64,000 bases of DNA from Armatimonadota bacterium (GCA_963677485.1 OY781964.1:4800001-4864000), one strand, 5' to 3'. Shown: positions 33,874-59,060, counted from the stretch's first letter. A program made the numbers and translations. The notes: generated by a model not told the origin, from the sequence alone.

Positions 33874-33960
33874 CCGCTCGTAAAGTCGTGCTATGCGAGG
33901 CATGGTCCGGTCACATGCTTCGTATAGCAGCACCTCTCAACGGAATCTTGGTACAATGAG

Positions 33961-33987: not shown

Positions 33988-34012
33988 CAATCCCGTCAAA
34001 AGGACAGATGAG

Positions 34013-35986: not shown

Positions 35987-36777
35987 GCAAGAACATTTAT
36001 GATGTGTCCAATATCACCTACAGTTACCCCAGATGTCAGCCAGTGCTGAGTAACATCACATTCCAAGTCAGCCAAGGCGAAAGCCTGGCGATTCTGGGTG
36101 CCAATGCTTGCGGAAAGTCGACACTGATGCACCTTCTAGACGGGTTGTATTTCCCGCAATCAGGCTCAGTGAAAGCATATGACACAATATTGACCGAAGA
36201 GAACGTGGAGACGGCTCCATTTTCAAGGCAGTTTCGACAGCAAGTCGGGTTCTTATTTCAGAACTCTGACGCGGTGTTGTTTTGCAACACTGTGGAAGAG
36301 GAGCTGGCCTTTGGCCCGCTGCAGCTTCGGCTGCCGCCGGAGCAGATCGACACGCGTGTTGAAGATGTGATCAAGATGTTCGGCATCGAACACCTCAGGC
36401 ACCGATCCCCTCAAACGCTAAGCGGTGGTGAGAAGAAGAAGGTCGCCCTGGCCGCCATTGTGTGCTGCGGCAGTCAAGTGATTTTGCTTGATGAACCATC
36501 TGCCAGCCTGGATCCCAGGATGCAGCAGTGGCTTTCGGACTTTCTAAACCAGCTGCACGAGGCTGGTGTGACGCTCATCATGTCAAGCCATGACCTGCAT
36601 TTTGTGTCCGAGGTGTCAGACCGTGCATTAATACTGTCGGAAGAACACCGTCTGGTCTACGATGGCCCAGTAACCGACGCGCTTGCCGACCTGGATATGC
36701 TGCGCTCCGTGAACCTAATACACGCCCATGCGCATAAGCAAGACGGCCGCATCCATGAGCATGTCATCGGCGAATAG
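35983..36777 (+). CDS. cbiO: ECF transporter ATPase (NikO/CbiO)
   Basis: Walker A GANACGKS, LSGGEKK, LLDEP; His-rich tail HAHAHKQ...HEH. Confidence 0.9.
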   Translation: MSKNIYDVSNITYSYPRCQPVLSNITFQVSQGESLAILGANACGKSTLMHLLDGLYFPQSGSVKAYDTILTEENVETAPFSRQFRQQVGFLFQNSDAVLFCNTVEEELAFGPLQLRLPPEQIDTRVEDVIKMFGIEHLRHRSPQTLSGGEKKKVALAAIVCCGSQVILLDEPSASLDPRMQQWLSDFLNQLHEAGVTLIMSSHDLHFVSEVSDRALILSEEHRLVYDGPVTDALADLDMLRSVNLIHAHAHKQDGRIHEHVIGE

Positions 36778-42609: not shown

Positions 42610-43248
42610 CTAGAAGGCAGGCGGACCGTTGCCATCTGGAGGAGGTCCTTGGGGAGGGCCTTGCTGAGCTTGATCTTGATTTTGGTTGTTGTTTTGCTGT
42701 TGATTTTGATTCTGGTTTTGGTTGTTTTGGCCCGGCTTTCGATTCTGTTGGGCCATCATGACTTTCAGTGCAGCGATCTGGTCGACGTTCAATATAGACC
42801 GAATCTTGGTCCACACATCGATACTTGCGGTGATCACGGCTGTTTCAGCCTTCTGAGCCGGAGCCACCAGCTCTTTCACTTTAGCATCATCATAATCGGC
42901 GGCAAGTAGAGCTGCCTGAAGTGCCTGAGCCAGCTTTACGGATTTGGTGGATAGTGCCTTAATGGTCGTGTTTCCGGCTGTGATGACTACTTTCAACTGG
43001 GTGATTTGGGAAGTGGTCAGCTCCAGTTGGTCAGCAAGCCGGTCTACCATCACGGTCGTTGGTGGGGTGACCACAGTCATGACACTGACCTGCATCATTC
43101 CACCCTGTCCATTAGGCCCTCCCGGACCTCCCTGGCCACCTGATCCGCTGCCCTGGCCTCCGTTTCCCTGCTGCGCAAAGCAGCCTGTCGCAAAGAGGCC
43201 AAGCACTGCTGCGGTAACTGCGATTGTTGATGTCTTCATTTCGATCAA
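42610..43248 (-). CDS. Spy/CpxP-like (LTXXQ) periplasmic protein with Gly/Gln/Asn/Pro-rich tails
   Basis: Signal peptide; LELTTSQ and ILNVDQ repeats. Confidence 0.7.
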   Translation of the reverse strand: MIEMKTSTIAVTAAVLGLFATGCFAQQGNGGQGSGSGGQGGPGGPNGQGGMMQVSVMTVVTPPTTVMVDRLADQLELTTSQITQLKVVITAGNTTIKALSTKSVKLAQALQAALLAADYDDAKVKELVAPAQKAETAVITASIDVWTKIRSILNVDQIAALKVMMAQQNRKPGQNNQNQNQNQQQNNNQNQDQAQQGPPQGPPPDGNGPPAF

Positions 43249-43500
43249 CTCCTCGGTGTGATTGTATCTTGATCGCCTATCCCTTAAGGTTGGCTATCAT
43301 ATCATGAGACGGAGTTGAACGGCTTTAGTATGCCAGCCAAAATCACATAAGGGTCGCAGTATGATCCTATCTTGATCACATTGTCATAGATGATATTTAA
43401 GCATTAAATCAAGGGTTAAAAAGAGGGTGTCCGAGCAGTAGAAGCAGGCACATTGACCCATGAGGGAGCCTCTGTGCCTGCTGATGGTTAGTGTTACAGG

Positions 43501-44385
43501 TTAGCTTTTCGCGGCTGCGGCCATGGCGGCGATATGTGCCGGTGTGGTTCCGCAGCAACCACCGATGATATTGGCACCGGCGTCGATCAACTCCTTAACG
43601 CGGGCGGCCATGTCACTCGGTGTCTCTTTGAACACCGCTTTGCCGTTCTCAAGAACTGGCATACCGGCGTTGGCATGGATCAGGATCGGCGTGTTAGGAG
43701 CAGCCGCTCGCAACTGACGCGTGATCTCTATCATGTTAGCAATGCCGTTACCGCAGTTAGCCCCAACCACGTCAGCACCCGCTTCGATCGCTTCGGTGGC
43801 GGCACGCTCAGGGGTGATACCCATCATCGTGCGGAAACCGCGTGCTCCGGGTTCGAATGTGAAGGTGCAGATAATCGGCAACGTGGTATTGTCTTTGGCA
43901 GCCTTGATGGCTTGCACAGCCTCAGTGACAGATGACATGGTCTCAATGCACAGTGCATCGGCTCCGCCTTCAGCCAGTGCGATCACTTGAGCCTTAAAGG
44001 ACTCATACAGCTGCTCTTCGGTCACATCCCCGCCTTCGTCTTCCACGATCTGGCCGGTGGGACCAACAGAGGCTGCCACATAGCCTTTACCGTCAATGGC
44101 ATCTTTGGCGATGGTCACTGACGCTTTGTTGAACTCGTGGACGCTGTCCACCAGCCCAAACTCCTTCAGCTTGAATGAAGTTCCACCAAACGAGTCGGTC
44201 TCTACGATGTCCGAACCGGCATTGATGTATGCCTCAGCGATGCTCTTCACTTCGTTCGGATGGGAAACACACCAGGACTCCGGGCATTCACCTGGTTTCA
44301 AGCCCATGGCTTGAAGGAACGTGCCCATGGCACCATCGGAAATCAGGATTTCACCTTGAGCGAGACGCTCTAATAGACCCTTCAT
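43501..44385 (-). CDS. Stand-alone homocysteine S-methyltransferase domain (MetH N-terminal type)
   Basis: ISDGAMGT, SVGPTG, IETMS, GANCG and GGCCGT zinc-ligand motifs; no pterin or cobalamin domains. Confidence 0.9.
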   Translation of the reverse strand: MKGLLERLAQGEILISDGAMGTFLQAMGLKPGECPESWCVSHPNEVKSIAEAYINAGSDIVETDSFGGTSFKLKEFGLVDSVHEFNKASVTIAKDAIDGKGYVAASVGPTGQIVEDEGGDVTEEQLYESFKAQVIALAEGGADALCIETMSSVTEAVQAIKAAKDNTTLPIICTFTFEPGARGFRTMMGITPERAATEAIEAGADVVGANCGNGIANMIEITRQLRAAAPNTPILIHANAGMPVLENGKAVFKETPSDMAARVKELIDAGANIIGGCCGTTPAHIAAMAAAAKS

Positions 44386-44416
44386 GAATTGTCCTCCATA
44401 TTAGTTGTCCGGAATA

Positions 44417-46342
44417 TCATCCGGTGACGGATTCCTGCTCTGATTTCGCTTGTGCCAACCTGTTGGCTACAGTCGGAAATTGAGCAAGGTCGGTGTGGGG
44501 CAAGAACATAGCCCCCAAATAGCTATCCATATAACGTGTGTCGCTGCTCAGATCGATATATGTCATACCGGCTGCGAGCTCTGATAGCTTCTGCCGGTGT
44601 TTACGAGAAAGCAATGCGATGTAGGCACCAGTCAGCGATGAGTTGCCGATATATTTGAACGTGTCGTAGGGAAGGTCAGGCAGCAACCCGATCAAAATCG
44701 CATCGTCGATCTCAATATACCGTCCAAATCCTCCCGCTATGTAGACGCAGGAAAGACTATCCCATCCGATACCCACGCTGGAGATCAACAAAGAGCACGC
44801 CGCATAGATGGCGGCCTTCGTGCGCAGCAGATTGGCGATATCCGGTTCAGTAATGACTAAATCCTGCCCATTGACCGTGTTGGTGCCAAACTCTATGATG
44901 TAACCAGCAATATCGGAATCCGTGCTCCAGCGTCCTGTCGACATCTCTGTGTTGAAGCGGCCAGCCTGGTCGATGACCCCACGCAGCAGCATCTCACCAA
45001 GCAGCGAGATGAGCCCCGATCCACAAATGCCGCTCGGTTTGCCACCGCCCACCACATCGTACTGAAGCTCCGAGCCGTCACTACCGATTGTTACATATTC
45101 GATGGCCCCTTCCATGGCCCGCATACCGCACTTGATGCCTGAGCCCTCAAATGCCGGACCCACGGAACAAGCGCAGGTGACCATCCAACTGGCGTTACCC
45201 AGCACGATTTCGCCATTAGTGCCGATGTCCAAGAACATGAATACATCTTCACTGTTGATGTAGATATCGGTGCAGAGAAGTCCCGATGTGATATCACCGC
45301 CCACATAACTCCCGACGCCCGGGGAGAATTCCACACCAGCCGCAGGATTGATTGATAAACCAACATCGTGTGCCGTGAGCGATGGTATCGAGTTCACAGT
45401 CGGAACGTAAGGTGTCTCCCGTATATGACGAGGCGGTAGAGCCAGCAACAGGTGCATCATCGTGGTATTCCCCGCAATGAAAGCCGCATTGATGCTATCA
45501 GTTGGGATGTTGACACTGGCGGCCATTTCCACAATGAGCGTACTGATCGTGTTGACGATCATATCGCGCAGTTCCGCCAGCCGTTCAGGGCTGCGGGCAT
45601 AGTCGATGCGGCTGATGATGTCGGCACCGCGGCTGATCTGCGCATTGTATGATGATCGGTTGGCCATCACAGTACCATCATGCAGGTTGACAAGTTGAAC
45701 CGCCACAGTGGTCGTACCTACATCAACCGCTAACCCGATGGATACGCCGGTTTGATGCCCGGGATGCACCTCCAAGACACGGCCCGTACCATTGAATTCC
45801 TGAACATCGACGGTAATACGTCCATCATCGCAGCGAAGAGTCTCGGCTAATTTCTGTAGTACACCGGCTCCTGTGGTCAGTGAGACCGAGCCATATGCAC
45901 TCGTCCATTCCCTGACCACCCTTTGCCAGTCAGAATAATGCTCTTCGATAGATGCAGGAGGCACAATGATTGTCTGCGAGCTATATAACGGCGTCAACGC
46001 ATTGGGGTCAGGCAAATAGTCGTCATTGACCAGAAAGTGACTATCGCCCACCACCTGCATTGCCGTTTGGCGCTTTTGAAGAAGCTTAACCGTTAAGTCA
46101 CCCACCACTTTTGTGCGGCAGGCGAGTACCAGCTTTTTATCAGTCTGAACTGAGCCTGCTGTGATGTCATCAGAACCGACGTTTCCTTGGATCACTTCCA
46201 CCAGACAGCGTCCGCAGGTGCCCTTACCTCCGCATGGAAGGTGCAGCTCCTCGATACCGCCTTTGATAGCGGCATCATGGATCAGCGATCCTGGCGCCAC
46301 TTCCACTACAACATCAGACGGCAAGAAACGGACACTTGGCAT
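44417..46342 (-). CDS. acsV: Reductive activator of the corrinoid Fe-S protein (RACo/AcsV; 2Fe-2S plus ASKHA ATPase)
   Basis: CGGKGTCGRC...LAC; DVGTTTV; DIGTNGE; GPAFEG; GICGSG; AGGFG. Confidence 0.9.
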   Translation of the reverse strand: MPSVRFLPSDVVVEVAPGSLIHDAAIKGGIEELHLPCGGKGTCGRCLVEVIQGNVGSDDITAGSVQTDKKLVLACRTKVVGDLTVKLLQKRQTAMQVVGDSHFLVNDDYLPDPNALTPLYSSQTIIVPPASIEEHYSDWQRVVREWTSAYGSVSLTTGAGVLQKLAETLRCDDGRITVDVQEFNGTGRVLEVHPGHQTGVSIGLAVDVGTTTVAVQLVNLHDGTVMANRSSYNAQISRGADIISRIDYARSPERLAELRDMIVNTISTLIVEMAASVNIPTDSINAAFIAGNTTMMHLLLALPPRHIRETPYVPTVNSIPSLTAHDVGLSINPAAGVEFSPGVGSYVGGDITSGLLCTDIYINSEDVFMFLDIGTNGEIVLGNASWMVTCACSVGPAFEGSGIKCGMRAMEGAIEYVTIGSDGSELQYDVVGGGKPSGICGSGLISLLGEMLLRGVIDQAGRFNTEMSTGRWSTDSDIAGYIIEFGTNTVNGQDLVITEPDIANLLRTKAAIYAACSLLISSVGIGWDSLSCVYIAGGFGRYIEIDDAILIGLLPDLPYDTFKYIGNSSLTGAYIALLSRKHRQKLSELAAGMTYIDLSSDTRYMDSYLGAMFLPHTDLAQFPTVANRLAQAKSEQESVTG

Positions 46343-46388
46343 TTATACGACCTTCCAGAAATCATATTGCGTTACTTCAGATTATAAC

Positions 46389-46430
46389 CAATCGGTATCT
46401 GAGCCCAATGTGGCACTCAGATACCGATTG
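46389..46430. other. Strong intergenic hairpin between acsC and acsV
   Basis: caatcggtatctgag / ctcagataccgattg 15-bp perfect stem. Confidence 0.7.
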
Positions 46431-46449
46431 ATGGCAGGTAGTTGTCGGC

Positions 46450-47793
46450 TTACCCCGTCGCGAAGACCTTCATGAACGAGCCGATGTCAGACGCCTCTTG
46501 TGGGCCAACGACCACTTCCCAGCCCGGCAGGCAGTCTTCGAGCTCACCACTGATCTGTGATACATAGCCAGGAATGACCAGCTTCCTGGTTTTGACTTGG
46601 TCAGCCAACCCAGATGACTTAATGAAGGTGGCGATCTTTTCGCCAGAGAACTTCCCAGCCGCCCAAGCGGTGAGCACGCTCATACCTTCGCACTCTACGA
46701 CCGCCAGATGGGCCGGCACTCCCGAGTTCTCTATCTCTCCTGAGACCATGAAGTAGGTCAGGGAGAAGTTCGTGGTGACCATCACAGGCGAGTTTTCGTC
46801 GGCTTCACCGATTGGATACACTTTGGGTTCCACTTGAATCGGCTTCTGCGGGTCTGTGAAGATGTTCTGGCGAAGCATCATCAATGGCAGTAGTGCTTCA
46901 TAGGCCATCGTATCGATCACCATGATCGAAGCATACTTACACATCAATGTAGACGCATCCGCAACCATTGATGGGATATCCTGACCCGTGATGAAGTTCA
47001 GAATTGGGAACCCCAACGGTTCGAACGGCACTTTCAATGCAGCCTTTCGGATGATGGTGTTGTTCTGCATTATAGCGGCCGGATTGCTTCCAGGGATGTC
47101 CAAGACGATATCCAGCACACCCAATGCCAGCAGCTTCTTGGTCAAACCGGCCAGTTCATCAAGATTGGCAGCTTTGGCCACGACAGGAGCTTTGTATTTC
47201 AACGCAAGTGCCGCCACTGCGTCTACATTCTCCATGGTGGCCGCGTGAATCAATGGCCGCTGGCCTTCGATCGCAGCAAGAGCTGCCTCCAGGGCAGCCA
47301 CATTGTCACTGCGTAGAATGACACCGCAGCCAGTACCGCCAGATACCGCCTTCACGGCAGCCACGAATGGCTCTACCGCACCCGTCACGTTGTCCACAAG
47401 AGCGAGGTCAAGCCGAAGTTGCTCACCTACCCTCTCTAGGCAGTATTCGCGCACTTCCGCTGTCTTATGAGCCAGATCGGAACCCGACTGGTCATCCGAG
47501 AACGAGATGCAGATGGCGGTCGGATGCACGAATGTCTTTTCATGCCGGAACATCACCGTTTCGTTGCCTACGGCCGTTTCACGCTCCGCAGGGCCGATTT
47601 TCACCAGCCGGATGGGCGGCTTACTGGCCGCCCCGATCTTGGTAATCGCCTCTTCAGATGCATACGGGCAGGCTGCCAGCTCCGCATTTTTTGAAGCCAG
47701 CTTCATAGCGAAGGCCATGCAGGTAGGTACGCCGCACTCACCGCAGTTGGTCTTCGGTAGAAGCTTAAAGATATCCAGTCCAGATAATGCCAT
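46450..47793 (-). CDS. acsC: Corrinoid Fe-S protein large subunit
   Basis: LPKTNCGECGVPTCMAFA...CP, GNETVMFRHEKTF, LRQNIFTDPQKP, TTNFSLTYF, SVLTAWAAGKF. Confidence 0.95.
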   Translation of the reverse strand: MALSGLDIFKLLPKTNCGECGVPTCMAFAMKLASKNAELAACPYASEEAITKIGAASKPPIRLVKIGPAERETAVGNETVMFRHEKTFVHPTAICISFSDDQSGSDLAHKTAEVREYCLERVGEQLRLDLALVDNVTGAVEPFVAAVKAVSGGTGCGVILRSDNVAALEAALAAIEGQRPLIHAATMENVDAVAALALKYKAPVVAKAANLDELAGLTKKLLALGVLDIVLDIPGSNPAAIMQNNTIIRKAALKVPFEPLGFPILNFITGQDIPSMVADASTLMCKYASIMVIDTMAYEALLPLMMLRQNIFTDPQKPIQVEPKVYPIGEADENSPVMVTTNFSLTYFMVSGEIENSGVPAHLAVVECEGMSVLTAWAAGKFSGEKIATFIKSSGLADQVKTRKLVIPGYVSQISGELEDCLPGWEVVVGPQEASDIGSFMKVFATG

Positions 47794-47805
47794 GATTTAG
47801 CTCCT

Positions 47806-50800
47806 TTAGCCCGCGACCCGGGTCATCTCAGCGATCTTGCGTCCAACAGTCTGTGCGGCTGATGGATGATACATGACCAGCATGTCAGCACCAGCATTCA
47901 ACAGGCTCATTGCGGTGGCTATCTCCAGTAATGCACCACGGTCTTGTTCTGGCCCCCATAGAGGGAACGAACTCATAGGTGCTTTGCTTTCCTTAGTTTT
48001 CGCCACTTCGTAGCCTGGTGTCGCCAGAATGGGCATGGCCAGCATGGTGTCGCCTGTGAAGGCCGAAGCGCGGATACGCTCCATGACAGAGTAGGTGTAT
48101 TCCAACCCATATCCAAGCGCACCTGTCAGAGAGTCGATGACGATCTTCTCAGGGGCGAGTCCCATGTTGGTGCAGAGAATGTTGAGCTGCTTGGCCATAT
48201 TGACATCAATCGGTGTCTGAGTGACCACACAATGATCATAGGCCATTGCCGCTGCGGCGATGGTCTTGTAGTTGTCCGTCTCCACCCAGTTCAGCAACAG
48301 GTTTTCGCCCGCATACTTGCTGGCGACTTCTTTCATCACTGCGTTGCACTTTTCGTAGTGGCTTGGGCCGGTCACGATGATCGGCACACCCACTGCCTTC
48401 AGAATACTGCCCACGAACTCAGCGCAAGCTTCAGGAGCCTTGTCACCGTGATCGGGATGGGCGGCATCTAAACGCACACTGATGACCGCAGCGCCCAGCT
48501 TGTCAACACAGTGTTTGGCCATAGCTGCCGGGTCGTCCAACAGTGCTCCGTAGGCGGTGCGCAGACTCTCAGGATAGTTCTTGGGTAGTTTATCAAACAC
48601 TTCCATCGCGATGACGGGTGTCTGACCGATGCTTCCTTCAAAATGTCGGAAGGGCAGCACCGATGCGCCACCAAGAACCACTGAAGAGGTTCGTTTGCCA
48701 CTTCCACCCAAAGTCACCAAGCGGACAGAGACTGATGAACTCTCCGGAGGTATGGAGAAGGTCGTAGGAACCAGGATTGAGGCCGATTCGACTACCCGCG
48801 GTGCGGTCTCCACCTTGACTGGCTCTGCAATAACCTCAACGGCTGGAGCTGCAGGGGCAGTAACTGGAGCCGCAACACTGACCGCCTGCGCGGGGGCAGG
48901 CATGGGGCCGAAAGCTCCGCTGTACATCAGCAGCATGTTGGCACCGGCGGTCAGCAGGTTCAATGCGGTCGATGCCTGTAAGGCCGCCATCTGTTGTTCC
49001 ATGGTTGATTCGGCAGTGGCTACGGGCATGCCCTGCGCTCGCATCTTGTCCAGCACCTGCATCACATAACCAAGACCATCATTCGGCATGGCTGTGACGG
49101 CTGGTGCGGTCGGAGCACTGGCTGCGACAACAGCGACAGGGGCGACAACCTCAGCGACAGGAACCGGAGCTGGTGCCGCTTCTGCAGGCTTCGCATCGAC
49201 TACCGGAGAAGCTTCCACCTTTGGAGCAGGTGCTGCAGCCGGAGCTGGCGTCTCCACGATAAGACCTCGAGCCGCATCGGCTTCTGCCGCCTCAGGCGAA
49301 GCTTGCGTGATGTCCCACATGGTCAGTGCAGGGTGTCCAACCTTCTCCATGTAAGCGGAAATCGCCGCGGTATCCGTGCCCGCGGCGGTCTCATCAGCGA
49401 TCATATCAATGTAGTTTTCGATACCGATTTGCTCACCGATGTGGTTTAGTTCTTCGCGGAGTGTCTCTTTGAGCTCCTTGGGCATCCATACGATACGCTT
49501 ATGACCACCTTCAGAATAGATGAACTTCCGGCTGGAGATATAAGCCTTGCCAACCCCGATGAAACCAGGGGTCTGCTGGCCACCGCCGGTCACACCGGCG
49601 AGCGTAGAGAACTTCATGCCCATCGGTGTTTCGCCAGGATACTCGCGGTTGACAATCGCCACACCGTTGCATTCAGGCAGCATAGCCACGATGGCTTCGA
49701 AACAACCGCAACTGGTCATGGGGTCCTTCAGCATTGAATATGCGTTGAAGGAGCTGATGGTCTGCTTGGAGTTCACATAAACATAGTCGTTGATGTTCTT
49801 CCACTGACCGCGGATGGGGTCGATACACTCACCCTTGACGAGTGGCTGGTTGGGTCCAGTGGGGTCAATTTCAAAGGCGGCCTTGCCATCTAGCCAGTTA
49901 TAGGCACCACATAGGCCCAGTCGTTCGGGAGTGATCACACACACGTGGTTAGGCGCGAAGCTCTGGCAGAGCAGGCACGAGTAGAAGGTATCTACACTCT
50001 CGTCGGTCAGCGATTCGACGCGCAGGTTACGCTCGCGATAGACGCGGCGTGCTTCAGCCAGGCGAGGCTCTACATCATCTTTGCCGGTATACAGGGTGAC
50101 TTGCACCTTGTCGACAATGGCTGGATACTCGCTGAGCAGTTTGGCCCGTACGATTTCGCCCAGGTGCTTGATTTTGAAGCCCTTGGCCTGAGCTCCCTTG
50201 CTGATGCGTACCCAGATGATATCACGCTGGCCCATATGCCAGATGCCTTCGCCGCCGTTGATCAGGTGGTGGATTTGGCGCTCCAAAATCGGCTCAAAGT
50301 CCGACTGCATCTTGCGGCCGGCAACCTCGACCCAGATAGCCAGGGGAAGGGCTGTGCCCTCTGCGACATCGTCTATCTCAGGTCCGACTACGACTATCTT
50401 GCCGTCTTCGACCTCAGATATTTCGCGTGTGGCAACATACTCAAAGGCATGGGTCTTGTTACCGCCGAATTCCACATAGGTTTGCTCTTTGCGGATTCGT
50501 TCGCCTTCAAATGCCGGGCCATATGAAACAGGGATCGGCACTTTGGTGATTTTGATCTTGCAGCCACGGACCTCAAGGGCCTTCTCGACAATCTTGTCTA
50601 GAGGCACATTGGAGACCACGTGCTCATAAGTGCAGATACCCGTGGGCAGGATTTCCGGAATGTCCGTGTCCGCGATGGTTGGGAAGCCGTAGGAGATGGC
50701 CCCCGCAGCCGCTGCATACTTCCCTTCGTCTACCTCGCCAAGTGCGATGACAAATGCGAAAATACGGTTCTTGTTGTATTTCAAGTTTCGCTCGTAGTCA

Positions 50801-51486
50801 CCTGGCTTCACTCCACCAAAAGACAGAGCGGCTCTGTTCGCGAAGCCTAATGCATAGATGGCGGCTGAGATGTCTCTGCCGAACGGAACCAGTCGAGTAT
50901 CCCAGCCCAGCTCTACACCAGCCTCTTCAAGCTGCTCAGAGAAGGTGACACCGTTGGTCTCACCGGCCATGAACACATACAGGTTCTTCTCCTGCAGTTC
51001 ACGGGCGATTTTGACAGCCGTCTCCTTGTCAGGAGCGGCACCCACCACGGCGGCGAAACCTGGTGCAGAGCCGTCCACAAACTCTATACCGCGCTCGCGG
51101 ATGATCACATCACCCGCAGCGCCCAGCCAGATACCATCCACAGGATTGGGCCCGTCCAGATACTTGCAGGCCTCGATCAGCTCAAAAGCGAACAGTGTGG
51201 CCATGCCTCCGTCGAGTGTGGCACCCAGATAAGGCAGCCAGACGTGCTCACCGGGGATGGGCATCAACAGGCTGCGGCATTCATCCAGCACTTCCTGCAT
51301 GTCGCCCAGTTTTTCTACACGAATACCCAAAAGTGAGTTAATCACAGGCAAGGCGTAGGTCGTATCTGGAAAACCGACCTCGCAGTCCACACCGTGAAGT
51401 TCGATGGCCTTAGCCACCATGGCCTCGGTATCCGCGACGATCTTGTGAGCTCCCTTGATCGCAGATGAGGCGATTATCTTACTCAT
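47806..51486 (-). CDS. acsB-acsD: Acetyl-CoA synthase (AcsB, about aa 1-725) fused through an Ala/Pro-rich linker to the CoFeSP small subunit (AcsD, about aa 910-1226)
   Basis: FYSCLLCQSFAPNHVC, GLCGAY, PMTSCGCFE and HPAL (AcsB); GGASVLPF..FEG, IAMEVFD, PIDVNMAKQLN, ALGYGLEYTYSVMERIR, AGADMLVMYHP (AcsD); single uninterrupted ORF. Confidence 0.92.
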   Translation of the reverse strand: MSKIIASSAIKGAHKIVADTEAMVAKAIELHGVDCEVGFPDTTYALPVINSLLGIRVEKLGDMQEVLDECRSLLMPIPGEHVWLPYLGATLDGGMATLFAFELIEACKYLDGPNPVDGIWLGAAGDVIIRERGIEFVDGSAPGFAAVVGAAPDKETAVKIARELQEKNLYVFMAGETNGVTFSEQLEEAGVELGWDTRLVPFGRDISAAIYALGFANRAALSFGGVKPGDYERNLKYNKNRIFAFVIALGEVDEGKYAAAAGAISYGFPTIADTDIPEILPTGICTYEHVVSNVPLDKIVEKALEVRGCKIKITKVPIPVSYGPAFEGERIRKEQTYVEFGGNKTHAFEYVATREISEVEDGKIVVVGPEIDDVAEGTALPLAIWVEVAGRKMQSDFEPILERQIHHLINGGEGIWHMGQRDIIWVRISKGAQAKGFKIKHLGEIVRAKLLSEYPAIVDKVQVTLYTGKDDVEPRLAEARRVYRERNLRVESLTDESVDTFYSCLLCQSFAPNHVCVITPERLGLCGAYNWLDGKAAFEIDPTGPNQPLVKGECIDPIRGQWKNINDYVYVNSKQTISSFNAYSMLKDPMTSCGCFEAIVAMLPECNGVAIVNREYPGETPMGMKFSTLAGVTGGGQQTPGFIGVGKAYISSRKFIYSEGGHKRIVWMPKELKETLREELNHIGEQIGIENYIDMIADETAAGTDTAAISAYMEKVGHPALTMWDITQASPEAAEADAARGLIVETPAPAAAPAPKVEASPVVDAKPAEAAPAPVPVAEVVAPVAVVAASAPTAPAVTAMPNDGLGYVMQVLDKMRAQGMPVATAESTMEQQMAALQASTALNLLTAGANMLLMYSGAFGPMPAPAQAVSVAAPVTAPAAPAVEVIAEPVKVETAPRVVESASILVPTTFSIPPESSSVSVRLVTLGGSGKRTSSVVLGGASVLPFRHFEGSIGQTPVIAMEVFDKLPKNYPESLRTAYGALLDDPAAMAKHCVDKLGAAVISVRLDAAHPDHGDKAPEACAEFVGSILKAVGVPIIVTGPSHYEKCNAVMKEVASKYAGENLLLNWVETDNYKTIAAAAMAYDHCVVTQTPIDVNMAKQLNILCTNMGLAPEKIVIDSLTGALGYGLEYTYSVMERIRASAFTGDTMLAMPILATPGYEVAKTKESKAPMSSFPLWGPEQDRGALLEIATAMSLLNAGADMLVMYHPSAAQTVGRKIAEMTRVAG

Positions 51487-53441
51487 ACCAGTTCCCTCCG
51501 CTCCTTCATATCATAAAGTTTGCGTTCCTTCTTGGCGTTAATCCCAAGGGCGTCGCGCTTACCCTCTATGTGATCAATGATCTTCTGTGCGGCGATGTCG
51601 GGATCTGGCTCCCACTCGAATTTACCGCCGGTGATGTCTGCCATATCTTCGCACAGCAGCTTGGTGACGTTGGCGCTGCCCTCTACATATAGCGGATGGC
51701 CAAGAACGACGTACAGCCCGCTGGCTACGAAGTAACTACCAATCGCAACGGCCTTCTCACTCATCCACTCAGGTGCTGCACCCGCGACTGGCAGGTCGGA
51801 AAGGTCTTCGCCTAAACCACCCTCAAGCAGCACATTGGTGGCAGCCATCAGGATGCGGCTATTGTCAACGCATGAGCCCATATGCAGCACGGGAGGTATA
51901 CCCACCGCCTCGCAGACTTCACGCAGTGAATCGCCCGCATACTGCAGCGCAGCTTCAGGAACCAGAAGTCCCTCTTTGGCGCAGGCGATGGCGGAACAAC
52001 CGGTCTGAAGCACCAGGATGTTCGCCTTGATGAGTGCCTTGGTCATGCGGATATGCGAATCATCTGAGCGCACCTTGGGGTTGCTGCAGCCCACAATGCC
52101 GACCACTCCACGGATACGCCCGTCAATGATCGCGTCATTGAGGGGACGGAAGGTGCTTCGGAAGCGCCCGCCAAGCATCTGGAAGATCGTCTCATTGGAA
52201 AAGCCTGCTACCAGGTCCATCGATTCGGTTGGGATATTGACCCGGGTGGCATCTCGGTTCTCGTAGTTGTCGATGGCCATACGGATCAGCCGGCAGGCGT
52301 GCGCATAGCCTTCTTGAACATCAAACGTGATCTGTTCCGCGTTGAAGGTGTGGGCTATCTCCGATGTGCTGATCAGTTTCGTATGGAAGCACTTAGTGAC
52401 TTCAGGAAGTGAAGGCATGACGCACTGAACATCCACGATCATCATCTCAACGGCACCGGTGACGATGGCCAGCTCTTGCTGCAGGAAGTTACCAGCTATC
52501 GGCAAACCATGGCGCATCAGAACTTCGTTCGCCGTGCAGCAGATACCGGAGATGTTGATGCCGGCGGCACCCTTGCTTTTGGCGTAAGCCAGCAGCTCTT
52601 CATCGATGGACGCGGTGGCGAGCATCTCAGACAGCGTCGGCTCGTGGCCATGCACGATGATATTTACTTTATCATCGGACAGAACACCAAGGTTCACGCG
52701 GCTGCGAATGGGCTTAGGTGTGCCAAACAAGATATCTGACACAGCAGTGGCGATCATCGAGCCCACCCAGCCATCGGCCAGGCTGCACTTCAGGCCACCC
52801 ATGATGAGGTGGTGATAGTCATGATCAACACCCATGTGCGTTCGGTGCATCAGCTCTACCACGGCGGAGTCCACACCATTAGGTGCAATCTCCAGCTTCT
52901 CCCAAAGAGCTTGACGTTTCTCTGGAGCCATCTTAAGAATTTCGTTGGGCTTTTCAGACCAAGCAAACTGAGCCATGAAGAAGTCCGCCAGTTCGCCGGC
53001 GATCTGAAGGTCATCGCGGCCTTCTATCTCCATCTCAAAAAACTGAGCGATCTCGTGCAGTCTGCGGGAATCGGTGATCTTATAGGAGCCACCTTTACCA
53101 GCCACCACACTCTTGAGTGTTCGGACCAGCATACGGCCATGGTCAGAGTGTGCTGCAGTTCCTGCGGCGATTTCACGCAGCAAGTTCCGCGCCGTGATCG
53201 TATCAGCATCGGCTCCGCAAATTCCCTTTGGGGCTTTCGCGGTGATCCGGCATGGTCCCATATGGCACAACCGGCAGCAAACCCCTGTCATGCCGAACTT
53301 GCACTGTGGCTGCTGTGTTTTATATCGATCCCAAACAGTCGATATGCCTCCAACCTGTGCGATGTCGATCATGCGGTTAGTTGCTGAGTCGTGTGAATAT
53401 AAGTTATTGCCTTTTGGTTCGTTCACTTCGGGCATCTTCAA
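51483..53441 (-). CDS. cooS: Anaerobic Ni-CO dehydrogenase catalytic subunit
   Basis: PQCKFG..GVCCRLCHMGPC, HGHEP, GICCTANE, VDVQC, VGCSN, TGCSA, HMGSCVDNSR, EWMSEKA. Confidence 0.96.
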   Translation of the reverse strand: MKMPEVNEPKGNNLYSHDSATNRMIDIAQVGGISTVWDRYKTQQPQCKFGMTGVCCRLCHMGPCRITAKAPKGICGADADTITARNLLREIAAGTAAHSDHGRMLVRTLKSVVAGKGGSYKITDSRRLHEIAQFFEMEIEGRDDLQIAGELADFFMAQFAWSEKPNEILKMAPEKRQALWEKLEIAPNGVDSAVVELMHRTHMGVDHDYHHLIMGGLKCSLADGWVGSMIATAVSDILFGTPKPIRSRVNLGVLSDDKVNIIVHGHEPTLSEMLATASIDEELLAYAKSKGAAGINISGICCTANEVLMRHGLPIAGNFLQQELAIVTGAVEMMIVDVQCVMPSLPEVTKCFHTKLISTSEIAHTFNAEQITFDVQEGYAHACRLIRMAIDNYENRDATRVNIPTESMDLVAGFSNETIFQMLGGRFRSTFRPLNDAIIDGRIRGVVGIVGCSNPKVRSDDSHIRMTKALIKANILVLQTGCSAIACAKEGLLVPEAALQYAGDSLREVCEAVGIPPVLHMGSCVDNSRILMAATNVLLEGGLGEDLSDLPVAGAAPEWMSEKAVAIGSYFVASGLYVVLGHPLYVEGSANVTKLLCEDMADITGGKFEWEPDPDIAAQKIIDHIEGKRDALGINAKKERKLYDMKERRELV

Positions 53442-53584
53442 TCGGCTCCTTGTCTTGGCATCTAGTAGTGACCAGGAATGATAGCTTATGCTATTAAGTA
53501 TTCCCTTACGATATTAGGTATCCGTATGCGACCTTCATCACCACGCGATCATATGTGATGATGATTTCAGAAATGATTCTGTGA

Positions 53585-54343
53585 TTATTCGGTCAAGTAT
53601 TGGGAAAGCATTGCTCCGACGGCTTGCCTGGCAGGGGATTCCAAGGGGATATCCACCACTGCCATTCCACCGGCATCCTGGTCGGCAACATTTTGATCAA
53701 CGGGTATGATTGCGATGATGGGCAGGCCAGTCAGCTCTGCCTCTTTTTGCACCATGGGAGGTAGTATACCGTCCGGAACACGGTTGATGATCAGTCCCCT
53801 GTGCTTCACTGGTGTGCCCATCTCGTCGGTCAGTTTTGCGATTGTTCCCGCAGTACGCACCCCACGGACGCTGCAGTCTGTGACGATGCATAACAGGTCA
53901 ACGGTCAGTAGCGTGCGTCGCGCCAGGTGCTCTAAACCGGCTTCGTTGTCTACCACCACATGGCGGTAGTTCTCAGACAGTTTACGTATGACATCACGTA
54001 GCACGTTGTTCGCGAAGCAGTAACAGCCGGGGCCTTCAGGGCGGCCCATGACGATCAAGTCGTAACCGTCCTGCTCTACCATGGCTTCCTGAACGCGTAC
54101 ATCCATGAACTCTTGTTTGGATATACCCGAAAGCTCTTTTGCTTTATGCAGAGCATCTTCGCGGATTCCGCCCACTGTGGCATCGTATGAGACACCGAGA
54201 GCTTCGTGCAGGTTCGCATTGGAATCAGCATCGACTGCCAGCACCGGGGTTTCTCCACGTGCGACCAGCCATTTGATGATCAGGGATGAGAGGGTCGTTT
54301 TACCGACCCCTCCCTTCCCGGTGATGGCGATGGTTAGTTTCAT
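53585..54343 (-). CDS. cooC: CODH/ACS nickel-insertion ATPase (CooC/AcsF)
   Basis: GKGGVGKT, DAD.NANL, GPGCYC, DNEAGLEH. Confidence 0.92.
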   Translation of the reverse strand: MKLTIAITGKGGVGKTTLSSLIIKWLVARGETPVLAVDADSNANLHEALGVSYDATVGGIREDALHKAKELSGISKQEFMDVRVQEAMVEQDGYDLIVMGRPEGPGCYCFANNVLRDVIRKLSENYRHVVVDNEAGLEHLARRTLLTVDLLCIVTDCSVRGVRTAGTIAKLTDEMGTPVKHRGLIINRVPDGILPPMVQKEAELTGLPIIAIIPVDQNVADQDAGGMAVVDIPLESPARQAVGAMLSQYLTE

Positions 54344-54358
54344 TCAGCCTTCCGTATT

Positions 54359-55411
54359 CTACGCAAGCCGTGCCTGGAGTGCAGCACTGGTCTTACCGAG
54401 AAGATCGAATACCAGCTCTGCATCAGCTACAGGCAAGGAGCCAGTGCCGCAAGACGGGGTGATCATTGCCTGATTCAGGATCAGCTCACGGGATATGCCC
54501 GCTGCTTTTGCTAGGTTATCTACACCTTCGTCAAACTTCGCCACGAGGCTCTCAACTGTCTGGGCTTGTATCTTGGCACTGTTGGTAGGAACCACGCCCC
54601 ACGCCAACACCTTACCGGCTTCCAGGTGGACCTTTACAGCTTGTGGGTATAACGCGATGGTGTCAGCAAACTCAAATGCATCGAAGTTCACCACATCCAC
54701 ACCGGCATCCATGAGGATAGACCATTCCGTGTTTCCGCAGCAGTGAACACCGGCAAGCGCACCCTCGGCGTGAACGGCATCCACTACCTCGGCCAGTTTT
54801 TCCACTACGTCTTCACGGCTCACGCTCACATATGTGGATGATCCGAATGCAGATAGAATGGGCTCATCAATGAAGCAGATGATCTTTTCGGCAAACTGTT
54901 TGAACTTGCGGATCTGCCAGCGGCACTTCATGGCGAGCGCTTTGACCACCACATCGATGAACTCAGCGTTGTAATAGATCGCTCGTTTGTTCTCATCGAC
55001 GATGGTCAGGCCGAAGCTGATGGGCCCTGTGGTCTGCACTTTCATAATCGGGCGCACTCCACCCTCAGCCTGCAGAGCAGCTTCCATGGCGAAAATGCCT
55101 TTGGAAAATTCCGGGGTAATCTGGAAATAGTCGTAGTTCTCCATGAGATAGTTCTCATAGAAATTCGCCAGATCCATCGAGTAGTCTCCCGTCGTATCAA
55201 AATACATGCGTCCTTTGACGCGGTCAATGACCACGCGGGGCATTCCTTCGGAATACTGCATCTCCATCTGTTCGTTCATGCCATTTGCGGGCAACTGTGG
55301 CCAGATAGGAGCGACAGGAATGCTATTCAATATCACTTTCACAGCATCAGCAGCATTGGCATGCGGCAGACTTCCTATTGCTGTGGCAATACATTTGGGT
55401 GAGAAGCTCAT
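54359..55411 (-). CDS. Core (MetE C-terminal-only, MesB-like) methionine synthase
   Basis: TAIGSLPH, WPQLP, KVQTTGP, IDEP, zinc ligands GVHCCG and TPSCG; no folate-binding N-terminal half; start ATG 55411 with RBS ggagg. Confidence 0.8.
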   Translation of the reverse strand: MSFSPKCIATAIGSLPHANAADAVKVILNSIPVAPIWPQLPANGMNEQMEMQYSEGMPRVVIDRVKGRMYFDTTGDYSMDLANFYENYLMENYDYFQITPEFSKGIFAMEAALQAEGGVRPIMKVQTTGPISFGLTIVDENKRAIYYNAEFIDVVVKALAMKCRWQIRKFKQFAEKIICFIDEPILSAFGSSTYVSVSREDVVEKLAEVVDAVHAEGALAGVHCCGNTEWSILMDAGVDVVNFDAFEFADTIALYPQAVKVHLEAGKVLAWGVVPTNSAKIQAQTVESLVAKFDEGVDNLAKAAGISRELILNQAMITPSCGTGSLPVADAELVFDLLGKTSAALQARLA

Positions 55412-55438
55412 GATGTATCCTCCGTCGGTATTCAATGT

Positions 55439-56248
55439 TTATAATTTCAGGGCGTCTGGCCGCTCATAGTTGCTTATGATAGCCTGTTTGATATTCCGAA
55501 ATGGTTCTAGTAGTTCGGGTTCGTGCAGGTCGGCTAGTGCTAACGCAGTCCTGTCAGCCATACCGATGCGGGCATCATATGGGATGACACCTAGAACAGC
55601 ACCTTCACCAAACTCATTCACGACCCACGCGCGGTCCGACACGGGGTCAGTCGCTTTGTTGATCACTATGGCAAATTGTTTAATTCCGATACCGGCAGCC
55701 AGATCACGCACGCGAAGGGCTGTCTCTACACTACGCTTCCCGGGCTCTACAACCGCCAGCATAAGGTCCACTCCCATGGCGGTACCTCGCCCAAGGTGCT
55801 CTATGCCAGCCTCCATGTCGAGAATGACCACCTCATTGCGTTTTAACACAATCTCTCGGACGAGTGACTTCAGCAGCACGCTCTCAGGGCAGTTGCATCC
55901 TCCACCAGCACTAGGAATGCCACCAAGCACGAGTAAGTCAACACCTGCGTGATGCACGGCGTACTGCTCAGCTATTCCTGACACATCGGGGTTGATAGAG
56001 AATATCTGTCCAAACTGATTGACTTTAGCACCTGTGCGCTCTTCAACCAGTTGGCGTTCCTGAGAAATGGTGTGGATCCGCTGTAGAAGATCAGAGGGCA
56101 TACCGAGTGCCGATGCCAGATTTGCATCCGGGTCAGCATCGATAGCCAGAACCTTGCGCCCGTCTACTGCGAACAGTCTTGCGAGGGTGCCTGACAGCGT
56201 CGATTTCCCGACCCCGCCTTTTCCGGATATGGCCAGTTTAAGAGACAT
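55439..56248 (-). CDS. cooC: Second CooC-type nickel-insertion ATPase
   Basis: GKGGVGKS, DADPDANL, GGGCNCPE, DMEAGIEHLGRGT. Confidence 0.92.
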   Translation of the reverse strand: MSLKLAISGKGGVGKSTLSGTLARLFAVDGRKVLAIDADPDANLASALGMPSDLLQRIHTISQERQLVEERTGAKVNQFGQIFSINPDVSGIAEQYAVHHAGVDLLVLGGIPSAGGGCNCPESVLLKSLVREIVLKRNEVVILDMEAGIEHLGRGTAMGVDLMLAVVEPGKRSVETALRVRDLAAGIGIKQFAIVINKATDPVSDRAWVVNEFGEGAVLGVIPYDARIGMADRTALALADLHEPELLEPFRNIKQAIISNYERPDALKL

Positions 56249-56455
56249 GAATCATCCTTTGTGGCGAATATGGTACAAGTGCGAGCTGCATACAGCGGAT
56301 GGCCATATGCCGGAGGCACTACTATACGTTCTAGCATCTATAGATACTGAATGAAAGAAGAATGGTGTTGAGTTCTGGTAGATTAAGACCATCGTATGGG
56401 CAGTTTGCATAATAGTATTATAAGGTAAGTTGCAAGCATCCTTAGCCACTGTGAA

Positions 56456-56695
56456 CTAGTCGGTTTCTTTCATCTGGCCCAGTTGAGCCAGACACTCTTC
56501 CGCGTGCTTGCACCAGGCAGCACAAGCCATATTGTTCCGCGGATTCACCACACAGTGACTGCAGTGAGGACAGCTACGCCGCAGGTCATCCTTATAGAAC
56601 TCAATGGGCTGACCACAGTGAACACACGGCAACTCGTAGATGTCTTCATGTGTCCAGTAGCGCAAATCTTGACCGGGGCAGTTCGCAGGTGCCAT
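56456..56695 (-). CDS. Small Cys-rich zinc-ribbon-like protein (79 aa)
   Basis: CPGQD, CVHCG, CPHC, CAAWC....C; RBS aggag before ATG 56695. Confidence 0.7.
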   Translation of the reverse strand: MAPANCPGQDLRYWTHEDIYELPCVHCGQPIEFYKDDLRRSCPHCSHCVVNPRNNMACAAWCKHAEECLAQLGQMKETD

Positions 56696-57050
56696 GGCAC
56701 TCTCCTGACAATAGCGATTCAGAGAGGAAATACGCCGCGGCGCTTCTCTTAATGTACATATTACCTTAGTAGATTTGGATGTGTATTTCAAATACAGCAT
56801 ACTTTAAGTGCTCATTATGGTAATATCGTGCTCCTAACAGCATTTATCGCTAAATGGCCGTTGTTGGTCGGCCCCCTACTCACTCGGCTGCTTCGTTGCA
56901 GCTATCCGTGCCACTAGTTCATTTCGCAGAAGCATGAAGTCGGTTGGTTTCCAGTCCATGTCCACATGGGGGCATTTCTTCACGTACGATGCGGCCCGCC
57001 GACTCATGAGGTGCGCTCAAGATCATAACTGAGAGTGGATCCTACCGAAT

Positions 57051-59060
57051 TCAACTACCGTCGCTGAATTCCTTCGCCTTCGCACGGCAGGAATTGATGG
57101 TGTTTCCATACCGATTCAGATAGCCTCTGAACGAGCCGGCATCTTTGCAATCATTGAGCCATAGGCGCGAAAACTCCGTTTTGAGTTCTTCGTATGCAGT
57201 CACCACAGCAAGCAGTTCATCAACAAGCTGCGCCTTGGGCACCAGTTTGTTCAGCACGTGTTCCCGCATCACGAACTTCCGCCCCATCGCTTCGTAGTTT
57301 TTCGCGGCGAAGAGAAGTTGTTCGATGACATCCTTGTTACGTTTGACCTTAGTCTGTGCTTTTTCCAGCAGTGTGACGGCTTGTTCGGCGGAGGCCAGGA
57401 TGGCTCTACCCAGGTTGCCAGGTTCAACGAGCGCCAGGATGGTAGGATCGGTGAAAGGGTCACCAAAGAACTCGTAATAGAACCGTCCGAAGCGGCTGTT
57501 GCCAACATATGCTGGCTCATCAATCTCGCCTGCCGCATTGCGTAGCCTGAGCTTCTTTCCGTTGATATTACCAGCCAGGTTGATCGCCCGTGCTACCGTG
57601 TCATCTTTGATGCCGAATATCAGCTTCCCAATCGTCTTGTTGAAGTAGGCGATGTCTAGCTTCGCACCCGCCCACGCACACACGCCATGATACAGAATTG
57701 GATACCATGTCATACCCGGCAGGTGATAGTGTCCGTCATCACCCCAGTCGGTGGTGACGCTGCCAGTTGCTCCACACTGCACGGCCCGACTGACGGTGAC
57801 ATCGGAAAACTGCTTCGCATGACCAACATACGGCATGATGTGACCGTGCGAATCGATCCAGGGTTGTGCGAAGAAATCCAATCCCAGTTTATGAAGTCTG
57901 GGGAAGTCTTTTTCCCAACTGCCGTAGAAGTCAGCCGTATAATAGCTGGCGATCAGCATGTCCTTAGGCAGCCTTTCGACAACTGATCCCAGTCCCGCAA
58001 GAGTGCCTTCATCCGCGAGCGGACCTTGCGCCACAATGAGACGCATACCCCTCTTAGCCAATTCATCACGCATTTTGGTCGCGTATTTCAAAGTCAGCTC
58101 AGTCAGTTCATGCTGTGTGGTACCGCTCTCTTTAAAGGCTGTGTCGTTGATCTCGGTGATATCAACCGTGATGAACTTGCCGGGAAAAGCATCGCATATC
58201 TCATTGATCAGATCAAGCACGAAAGCCACGGATTCGGGTTTTCGTATATCAACCGTTCCGCCATCGGGAACCATGAACTTTCTGTAAGGTGGCTTCAAGC
58301 CTATGATGTAAAAATGCCCAAAGGTCTGCATCATGGGATGAACTTCCATGTGGTAGCGATCGGCCATGTCGAACAGTTTACGGGCGTCCTGGGCCGTGAT
58401 GGCCTCAGGGGGCGCGATATCGGGGTAACGCGTCCATTTGAACTGGTCCTCTATGTAGAGTTCATACATATTCATCTTGGCTTCAGCCGTGATACTGGCA
58501 AGTCTTTGAAGGGCTTCGATTTTGGGCATCTGCCCTCGGCTCACATCGTATTGGAACCCGCGGTAACGCAGCGAAGGCCAGTCGCGAATCACAATGCCGG
58601 GTATCGATGTGCGGTCAGTCGCCATCTGCGCGATGGTGCGGGTGGCGTAATAGATGCCGGTCTCCGTCAACGCGGCGACGGTGATGCCCTCTGCGTCCAC
58701 TCGCAGGTAATAACCCTCTTCACCAAGAGCTTTCACATCGGCCGTGGTGACAGATGTGATTCCCTTAGGAATTCTGCCCTTCTGGCAAAGAACCAAGCTG
58801 ATGCATCGTGCTTCACGCGTATTCGGTATCACATTGAGTTTGATACCACAGCTTGTTTTTAACAGACCTGGAAAGTCGACACTAAGCCGTGTGTCGCGGC
58901 AACCCACAAGCCTGATGCCCAGGCACTTTCTCAAATCAAAACGGCCACTAACCATCGCCACAGCTTTTGGTTGGGGAAGAATCCAGACATCGGCGTTGCC
59001 AAGGATTTTGGCGACTTTCACGAAGTCCGTTTCGAAAGTTGAATGTGTCTGCACCACCAT
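57051..59060 (-). CDS. GH20-like beta-N-acetylhexosaminidase family protein with atypical catalytic motif
   Basis: EEGYYL, IRDWPSLRYRG..YDVSRG, QTFGH, TDWGD.GH; start ATG 59060 with RBS aggag. Confidence 0.8.
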   Translation of the reverse strand: MVVQTHSTFETDFVKVAKILGNADVWILPQPKAVAMVSGRFDLRKCLGIRLVGCRDTRLSVDFPGLLKTSCGIKLNVIPNTREARCISLVLCQKGRIPKGITSVTTADVKALGEEGYYLRVDAEGITVAALTETGIYYATRTIAQMATDRTSIPGIVIRDWPSLRYRGFQYDVSRGQMPKIEALQRLASITAEAKMNMYELYIEDQFKWTRYPDIAPPEAITAQDARKLFDMADRYHMEVHPMMQTFGHFYIIGLKPPYRKFMVPDGGTVDIRKPESVAFVLDLINEICDAFPGKFITVDITEINDTAFKESGTTQHELTELTLKYATKMRDELAKRGMRLIVAQGPLADEGTLAGLGSVVERLPKDMLIASYYTADFYGSWEKDFPRLHKLGLDFFAQPWIDSHGHIMPYVGHAKQFSDVTVSRAVQCGATGSVTTDWGDDGHYHLPGMTWYPILYHGVCAWAGAKLDIAYFNKTIGKLIFGIKDDTVARAINLAGNINGKKLRLRNAAGEIDEPAYVGNSRFGRFYYEFFGDPFTDPTILALVEPGNLGRAILASAEQAVTLLEKAQTKVKRNKDVIEQLLFAAKNYEAMGRKFVMREHVLNKLVPKAQLVDELLAVVTAYEELKTEFSRLWLNDCKDAGSFRGYLNRYGNTINSCRAKAKEFSDGS

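Follow-up and report, generated by a model that had tools for sequence, protein, structure and literature searches.

The locus considered here, a carbon monoxide dehydrogenase/acetyl-CoA synthase (CODH/ACS) operon that lacks acsE but carries two different putative homocysteine methyltransferases, raises the question of where the methyl group on its corrinoid iron-sulfur protein (CoFeSP) comes from and where it goes. It lies at positions 43501–56248 of the window, a 64,000-nucleotide stretch of the genome of an Armatimonadota bacterium (GCA_963677485.1, OY781964.1:4800001-4864000), and consists of eight tightly packed genes, all on the minus strand. Read along that strand, the order derived from Pfam and NCBIfam searches is cooC1, X358 (encoding a MetE-like protein of 358 amino acids), cooC2, cooS, an acsB-acsD fusion, acsC, acsV and HcyMT (encoding a stand-alone homocysteine (Hcy)-binding domain of the MetH type); the first-pass annotation had this order exactly right. 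The reading that we tentatively prefer, and rate somewhat short of an even chance, is that the two zinc enzymes each pass the methyl of methyl-CoFeSP on to homocysteine, and that in this genome the methyl can come only from the cleavage of acetyl-CoA. Its observed basis consists of the genes present, their catalytic residues, the fold, the synteny and the lack of acsE from the entire genome, and from these we infer the partnership with CoFeSP, the direction of flow and the donor common to both enzymes.

The operon would encode a complete nickel CODH/ACS together with CoFeSP, and its CooS, AcsB, AcsC and AcsD sequences each score above a curated cut-off. The catalytic subunit of Ni-CODH is encoded by cooS/acsA (51483–53441, minus strand; TIGR01702, 698 bits against a cut-off of 478). 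The acsB-acsD fusion (47806–51486, minus strand) is a single open reading frame (ORF) of 1226 amino acids, matching both NF040764 (1066 bits, cut-off 800) and NF003376 (358.7 bits, cut-off 280). ACS occupies residues 1–726, with a CGC motif at residue 593, and the small CoFeSP subunit AcsD occupies about 910–1222; the Ala/Pro-rich linker of about 170 residues between them has a short, helical-looking middle part, and AcsD would thus be tethered flexibly to AcsB. The large CoFeSP subunit, comprising an Fe-S domain, a barrel and a corrinoid domain, is encoded by acsC (46450–47793, minus strand; NF003195, 557.2 bits, cut-off 306). The product of acsV (44417–46342, minus strand) is predicted to be RACo, which reductively activates the corrinoid at the expense of ATP; each of the four RACo Pfam domains exceeds its cut-off (PF14574 at 321 bits, PF17651 at 180 bits, PF17650 and PF00111), and the NF040756 score of 605.5 bits is below the cut-off of 800 for that profile. 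Both cooC1 (55439–56248, minus strand; PF01656, 63.5 bits) and cooC2 (53585–54343, minus strand; PF01656, 52.9 bits) encode CooC-type ATPases, the former being a CooC/AcsF-type P-loop ATPase and presumed nickel-insertion factor. The pairing of cooC1 with X358 is conserved in related loci.

X358 (54359–55435, minus strand) probably starts at an ATG nine codons into its ORF. No Pfam profile matched it, the sole NCBIfam match was to NF002119, an archaeal ‘methionine synthase’ (30.8 bits, cut-off 258), and a PDB search with the sequence gave no match. The family is large, with 5119 of 8000 scored candidates at E <= 0.001 and 430 cluster representatives at E <= 1e-30, and, with 20.3 and 17.5 bits as the highest scores, none of 43 representatives came up to the 21-bit cut-off of PF01717. 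An AlphaFold (AF2) model built from 77 sequences is a single barrel (pLDDT 96.2), for which the top Foldseek matches were MetE (3l7r; E 4.5e-8, TMq 0.61), uroporphyrinogen decarboxylases (URO-D) and the MesD structure 3rpd. The model thus resembles URO-D and the C-terminal half of MetE, and is without the N-terminal folate domain of the latter. Six residues are invariant or nearly so across the family. Those of the putative zinc site are H231, which is invariant among 77 aligned members, and C233, D252 and C329, which are found in at least 90% of them. The other two, S22 (in IGSLP) and D190 (in IDEP), are nearly invariant and correspond to the homocysteine-binding Ser and Asp of Escherichia coli MetE (S433 and D599), an equivalence drawn by motif reading rather than by structural superposition.

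The spacing of the zinc ligands in X358 (His-Cys, Cys-Asp, Asp-Cys) is 2/19/77. In the accessible part of Price 2021 (PMC7857596) the spacing is 2/19/76 for MesB Q3Z939 (residues 214, 216, 235 and 311), with 22/61 for MesA and 19/89 for MesC, and the accessible part of Deobald 2020 (PMC7005905) gives H215, C217, D236 and C312 for core-MetE of strain CBDB1. Like MesB and core-MetE, X358 is a single barrel of about 350 amino acids with an H-x-C...D...C zinc site and Ser/Asp homocysteine residues, and it is therefore predicted from its sequence to be a MesB-like zinc homocysteine methyltransferase with a MetE/URO-D fold. The published threshold for MesB is a phmmer score of at least 130 bits against DET0516, and the name MesB-like is used for X358 here. 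A core or MesB-type protein had been proposed at the outset, and the distribution of the family agrees with this: it was found in 23 of 70 AcsB-positive Armatimonadota genomes, in 0 of 20 AcsB-negative genomes and, as for MesB, not outside ACS-bearing genomes. In related loci X358 sits inside the operon, the exception being L043, where only cooC1 and X358 are left, and its identity across phyla (60–95%) is about that of AcsB and CooS. X358 differs from MesB in having no PF01717 match and in its setting, an operon that includes cooS and an acsB-acsD fusion and belongs to genomes in which MetH is often present too. A single CooC-X358 fusion (P0036) was treated as a probable frameshift and was not used as evidence.

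HcyMT (43501–44385, minus strand; 294 amino acids; PF02574, 240.5 bits) begins 31 nt past acsV, and its ATG is preceded by GGAGG. The closest solved structure is the Hcy domain of Thermotoga maritima MetH (1q7m, E 5.4e-43); the other solved types are more distant, with E 1e-21 for BHMT and 5e-13 for homocysteine methyltransferases of the S-methylmethionine/S-adenosylmethionine (SAM) type. It has the zinc cysteine triad and the Hcy-binding residues of the Thermotoga domain, and D17, E148 and the zinc cysteines C211, C277 and C278 are invariant among 16 operon-linked homologs. Unlike MetH it stands alone, without a pterin-binding domain, and adjoins acsV rather than pterin and B12 domains. In a tree built with 45 Hcy domains of the genomes under study, the MetH clade (SH-aLRT 100) and the YitJ-type clade (96) are separate from the stand-alone proteins (89). 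Among the latter, subclade A (97) comprises 14 rows, including the window HcyMT, of which 11 are in operons, subclade B (99) comprises 13 rows with 4 in operons, and an in-operon Hcy domain from NC10 stands by itself. HcyMT is thus outside the MetH clade, and the MetH of this genome is 3.7 Mb distant with an Hcy piece of its own, so that the MetH domain set does not lie side by side. An apparent AcsV-HcyMT fusion (P0277) is one sequence on one 6.5-kb contig, in which the last ~55 AcsV residues are replaced and HcyMT begins at its own Met; like P0036 it is most likely a frameshift, and it was set aside.

The window genome (G000) is a single contig of 5.22 Mb and 97% complete. No acsE lies in the cluster, as the first-pass annotation stated, and the same holds for the whole genome: the best NF005719 match (173.9 bits against a cut-off of 259) falls on MetH, and PF00809 detects two proteins only, a 276-amino-acid protein of the dihydropteroate synthase type and MetH. 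Profile searches of the genome also found no MtrH, MttB or PF01717 protein. The further claim that metF, folD and fhs are missing is correct for the window but not for the genome, which encodes fhs, folD (~26 kb before the window start) and a single methylenetetrahydrofolate reductase (MTHFR) domain, fused behind an Hcy methyltransferase domain in a YitJ-type protein of 610 amino acids. Split MetH domains were likewise found. MetH (G000:C1:1175945-1181522, locus L096) consists of two overlapping ORFs, a 345-amino-acid Hcy piece and an 840-amino-acid pterin-B12-activation piece, followed by the YitJ-type fusion, and a two-piece MetH is also present in the same-genus genomes G191 and G143. As judged from gene content, the folate methyl branch and a folate-dependent methionine synthase are present, and only the link between methyl-tetrahydrofolate (methyl-THF) and CoFeSP is missing.

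Elsewhere in the genome a stand-alone corrinoid protein of 211 amino acids (B12-binding_2 plus B12-binding) is encoded at G000:C1:5083811-5085282 (L095, 7812–9283), next to genes for a DUF1638 protein, an ANTAR response regulator and a GAF histidine kinase. There are also 43 matches to PF01208 (URO-D), one of them HemE-like at 406 bits. Expansion of this family was considered as a source of methyl groups and rejected, as it does not track the operon: relatives without ACS have 12–24 copies, and the operon-bearing Acidobacteriota G006 and G010 have one each. It appears to be a trait of the lineage.

The operon is not confined to this genome. A scan of species-representative genomes yielded 283 relatives of X358, and the best 80 loci were examined; they belong to Armatimonadota, Acidobacteriota, Planctomycetota, Hydrogenedentota, Verrucomicrobiota, NC10, Leptospirales, Bacillota, Bacteroidales and others. 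Using BLASTP with the window proteins, the order cooC-X358-cooC-cooS-acsB/D-acsC-acsV was recovered wherever the contig was long enough, except at L043, and none of the related loci has acsE inside the cluster. The fused acsB-acsD marks this type of operon, with frames of 1129–1351 amino acids compared with ~740 for acsB in the classical type of the phylum. Linkage of HcyMT was assessed in 50 of the 80 genomes, chosen for longer loci, with counts tallied by hand from coordinate tables. HcyMT was found on the X358 contig, within ~12 kb, in 37 genomes from many phyla: after acsV in 26, before cooC1 or X358 in 8, and between X358 and cooC2 in 3. In 11 it is elsewhere (on another contig or far away), the operon being cut by a contig end in 5 of these, and in two (G008, which is the genome of L043, and G016) no stand-alone HcyMT was found. 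The anticipated co-occurrence of the Hcy domain with acs clusters devoid of acsE is therefore seen across phyla.

AcsE was also sought in 30 of the 80 genomes, counting as an acsE-type match any short ORF for a pterin-binding protein that scores at the AcsE cut-off or close to it. Five genomes (4 Armatimonadota and 1 Planctomycetaceae) exceed the cut-off and one Bacillota genome is near it, at 230.9 bits; the remaining 24 have no acsE-type match and only long ORFs of the MetH type. In an even sample of 401 Acidobacteriota genomes, AcsB occurs in 9 and is fused in 2, neither of which has AcsE. The occurrence of the operon is therefore patchy, probably through horizontal spread, and does not mark the phylum as a whole.

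Within the Armatimonadota, AcsB is present in 70 of 401 sampled genomes, and AcsE exceeds its cut-off in 66 of these, the exceptions being the window genome, G191, G320 and G307 (fragments only). The 23 genomes with X358 comprise 22 orthologs of at least 68% identity and one 41% relative beside an unfused acsB, and they are essentially those with a fused acsB-acsD; the unfused type in this phylum usually has acsE near acsB and no X358. Among the 22 genomes with an X358 ortholog, 20 have exactly one AcsE, always outside the operon and once next to metF-metV. A MetH-type pterin match is present in only three (the window genome, G191 and G051), and searches of five good Armatimonadota operon genomes for PF01717 and a long MetH-type ORF found neither in any of them. 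Across carriers of the operon, the occurrence of AcsE and that of MetH are thus complementary for the most part. In genomes without MetH and MetE, X358, HcyMT and a YitJ-type fusion are the only candidate methionine synthases, which is the argument that Price made for MesB.

Two further arrangements were noted in the phylum. In G058, G074, G088, G101 and G229, whose acs cluster is of the classical type, another AcsE-like pterin protein is encoded 0.2–3 kb from a stand-alone Hcy domain, and the two together look like a multi-part MetH. At L140 (G320:C141, 4504–12770) an X358-like gene (40%) is accompanied by an unfused acsB, acsC, acsV, cooC and acsD; there is no cooS within 20 kb and no AcsE match in the G320 genome, and this type of cluster resembles the published description of Dehalococcoides.

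Part of this picture is known. According to the accessible part of Price 2021 (PMC7857596), CoFeSP has already been proposed as the methyl donor of MesB, MesB occurs only with AcsC and AcsD, and mesB-acsCD operons exist in methanogens; the route from CoFeSP to MesB is hence a published proposal. In Dehalococcoides the acetate methyl enters methionine, and in the accessible parts of the two papers concerned D. mccartyi is described as without acsE, CODH, metF and MetH (PMC7005905, PMC7857596). An incomplete Wood-Ljungdahl pathway serving methionine is also in print (PMC7857596, PMC7005905 and, as far as accessible, a 2026 termite-gut preprint). The window genome resembles D. mccartyi in being without acsE, and ACS without AcsE is common to its operon and the incomplete pathway. 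It differs in having CooS, so that CO need not accumulate, and in the presence of fhs, folD, MTHFR and MetH. In 2014 Zhuang reportedly read ACS without AcsE as an acetyl-CoA decarbonylase supplying the methyl of methionine. The classical acs cluster of the Moorella type contains cooC, acsA/cooS, acsB, acsC, the RACo gene and acsD, with acsE, and acsB and acsD are separate genes. The window operon shares the first six of these and differs in having no acsE and a fused acsB-acsD. In the literature searched, no paper was found on an Hcy domain in acs operons, on the acsB-acsD/X358 type of operon or on its distribution, though table S1 of PMC7857596 may list MesB in some of the lineages. The papers searched do not contain the cross-phylum operon without acsE, the linkage of HcyMT to it or the pattern of acsE and MetH; the proposal that MesB uses CoFeSP is in them.

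In the preferred reading, ACS would run as an acetyl-CoA decarbonylase, leaving the methyl group on CoFeSP, and CooS would oxidize the CO. Since no AcsE or other encoded enzyme is predicted to methylate CoFeSP from methyl-THF, cleavage of acetyl-CoA would be the only source of methyl-CoFeSP encoded in this genome, which supports the cleavage proposed in the first-pass annotation. At their zinc sites, X358 and HcyMT would both hold homocysteine and accept the methyl of methyl-Co(III)-CoFeSP, so that methionine and Co(I) are formed; AcsV would act as activase. CoFeSP would then stand in for the cobalamin module in a methionine synthase made up of individual proteins. Methyl-Co(III)-CoFeSP is favored as the donor because both enzymes have zinc-thiolate residues, have no pterin domain and travel with CoFeSP and its activase. 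Methyl transfer from CoFeSP to homocysteine is downhill, as is known from the thermodynamics of methionine synthase and corrinoids.

Several observations weigh against this reading. With MetH and MTHFR in the genome a second route to methionine is not required, so such a module is not needed for methionine; the reading does not account for the upkeep of a 12-kb operon of nickel enzymes in a genome so equipped, nor for the use of two enzymes for one reaction. The presence of acsE elsewhere in most Armatimonadota carriers means that the operon can belong to a full Wood-Ljungdahl pathway, and the operon as such is not intrinsically folate-independent. In an Rfam search no SAM, cobalamin or other riboswitch was found ahead of the operon: there was no match in the window at gathering scores, and none at E up to 1 over 43000–57500.

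The most direct objection comes from G143, a genome placed in the same genus that has no AcsB and no X358. Its contig L142 (G143:C23) is syntenic with the window, with a CbiO gene, an M20 peptidase gene, orf212 and HcyMT, and the HcyMT is intact, at the same site and 81% identical to that of the window. Directly beyond HcyMT, this contig has the HMGL-like and ferredoxin genes, which in the window come after the operon; what is absent is a 14.6-kb block (window 44386–58966) comprising acsV to cooC1, a small Cys-rich ORF and a GH20 gene. Because no convincing repeats flank this block, its insertion and its deletion cannot be told apart. HcyMT, being kept without ACS genes, does not strictly need CoFeSP. 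Similarly, an ortholog of HcyMT is found away from the operon in G084, G110 and probably G372 and G412, all of one Armatimonadota genus, and the three out-of-operon copies that were inspected have no corrinoid or methyltransferase neighbors. All 13 ACS-less genomes of a sister genus carry stand-alone Hcy domains, which are 43–47% identical to HcyMT, and stand-alone Hcy domains of a sister subclade are frequent in genomes that lack ACS. The first-pass annotation had held that acsE and a full methyl branch elsewhere, together with an Hcy domain paired with separate MetH cobalamin/pterin subunits and no methyl transfer from CoFeSP, would refute its proposal; no acsE was found, but a separate pterin-B12 polypeptide of MetH does exist.

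These findings give some substance to a rather unlikely alternative, in which X358 alone uses CoFeSP and HcyMT acts in trans as the Hcy module for another corrinoid carrier, its place beside acsV reflecting inherited synteny or shared regulation. The pterin-B12-activation piece of MetH and the 211-amino-acid corrinoid protein beside the DUF1638 gene are possible partners. Retention of HcyMT in G143, the split MetH here and in G191, and the stand-alone Hcy domains 2–3 kb from an AcsE-like pterin protein in other Armatimonadota all point this way. On the other hand, the 37 in-operon cases show three arrangements and include Acidobacteriota with a full-length MetH that has an Hcy domain of its own, in-operon members occur in both stand-alone subclades as well as in the separate NC10 row, and copies outside the operon have no corrinoid neighbor either. 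It is less probable again that X358 (most likely) or HcyMT replaces AcsE in linking methyl-THF to CoFeSP, which would complete a Wood-Ljungdahl pathway for fixation of CO2 or CO or as an electron sink. The presence of fhs, folD and MTHFR, a full CODH/ACS with two maturation ATPases, the cross-phylum conservation of X358 at about the level of AcsB and CooS, and the persistence of the operon in many acsE-less genomes would all be accounted for. However, X358 keeps its zinc and homocysteine residues and is without the folate domain of MetE, HcyMT has no pterin-binding domain, and the coexistence of both with acsE in the 20 Armatimonadota genomes argues against equivalence.

Reversal of the flow, which the first-pass annotation had named as an alternative, seems very improbable. 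Here a zinc enzyme would demethylate a donor such as methionine, a methyl thioether or sulfonium compound or a URO-D-like substrate onto CoFeSP, and the methyl would be carbonylated to acetyl-CoA. Zinc enzymes such as the methylthiol:CoM methyltransferases can indeed demethylate thioethers onto corrinoids, and the genome has its many PF01208 proteins. The URO-D expansion, however, is unrelated to the operon, no MtrH or MttB gene is present, and the methylation of Co(I) by methionine is uphill.

Direct methyl-group transfer to homocysteine from CoFeSP might also be placed in a wider scheme, which we regard as possible but doubtful. The operon would then be a methionine synthase made of separate proteins, in which HcyMT (with X358) forms the homocysteine module, CoFeSP the cobalamin module, AcsV the activation module and AcsE, where present, the folate module. 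It would serve many Armatimonadota as their sole methionine synthase, and in lineages that have lost AcsE (this genus, peat Acidobacteriota, Phycisphaerae, Hydrogenedentota and others) it would have become a dedicated shunt from acetyl-CoA to the methyl of methionine, not a pathway of carbon fixation. In the AcsE-bearing Armatimonadota the operon may serve a full Wood-Ljungdahl pathway, from which methionine synthesis branches off at the side.

Some features of the surroundings remain to be described. Just upstream of cooC1 is a small Cys-rich ORF (56456–56800, minus strand), of ~80 amino acids if read from the ATG at 56698, which has AGGAGA upstream of it. The putative product has nine cysteines and is zinc-ribbon-like; it matched no family, and the nearest protein clusters are unnamed or automatically named 80-amino-acid proteins. 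Of the 80 related loci, 10 contain a BLASTP relative, which in 9 occupies the corresponding position and in L086 lies at the other end of the cluster. Scans for promoters and terminators gave no more sites than in shuffled sequences. About 7 kb from the operon (window 33893–36777) are genes for CbiM, CbiQ and an ABC ATPase, a cobalt/nickel uptake system of the energy-coupling factor type. A class-III aminotransferase gene at window 38470–39837 is divided into two ORFs (177 and 269 amino acids) and is one ORF in G143 (L142, 6202–7578), so that a frameshift or pseudogene is likely. Contigs from three bioreactor RNA-library runs contain pieces 90–95% alike to HcyMT, X358, cooC1, acsB and cooS, two of them spanning the acsV/HcyMT junction. 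These were set aside as evidence of expression, as they represent relatives only, carry-over of DNA is possible and a contig is no proof of a transcript.

It is routine to take CODH/ACS genes in metagenomes as signs of acetogenesis or autotrophy. If the operon described here is wired to homocysteine, such calls would be wrong for a set of lineages from soil, peat and bioreactors. Methionine synthases that depend on a corrinoid protein would also extend beyond the MetE-like families to the Hcy domain of MetH, and beyond strict anaerobes such as Dehalococcoides to phyla that degrade polysaccharides. With its roughly eight proteins, the operon offers a defined system in which transfer from CoFeSP to homocysteine, so far hypothesized only for MesB, could be reconstituted. 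Its layout is common to soil and wetland bacteria of many phyla and suggests that in these organisms CoFeSP hands its methyl group straight to methionine.

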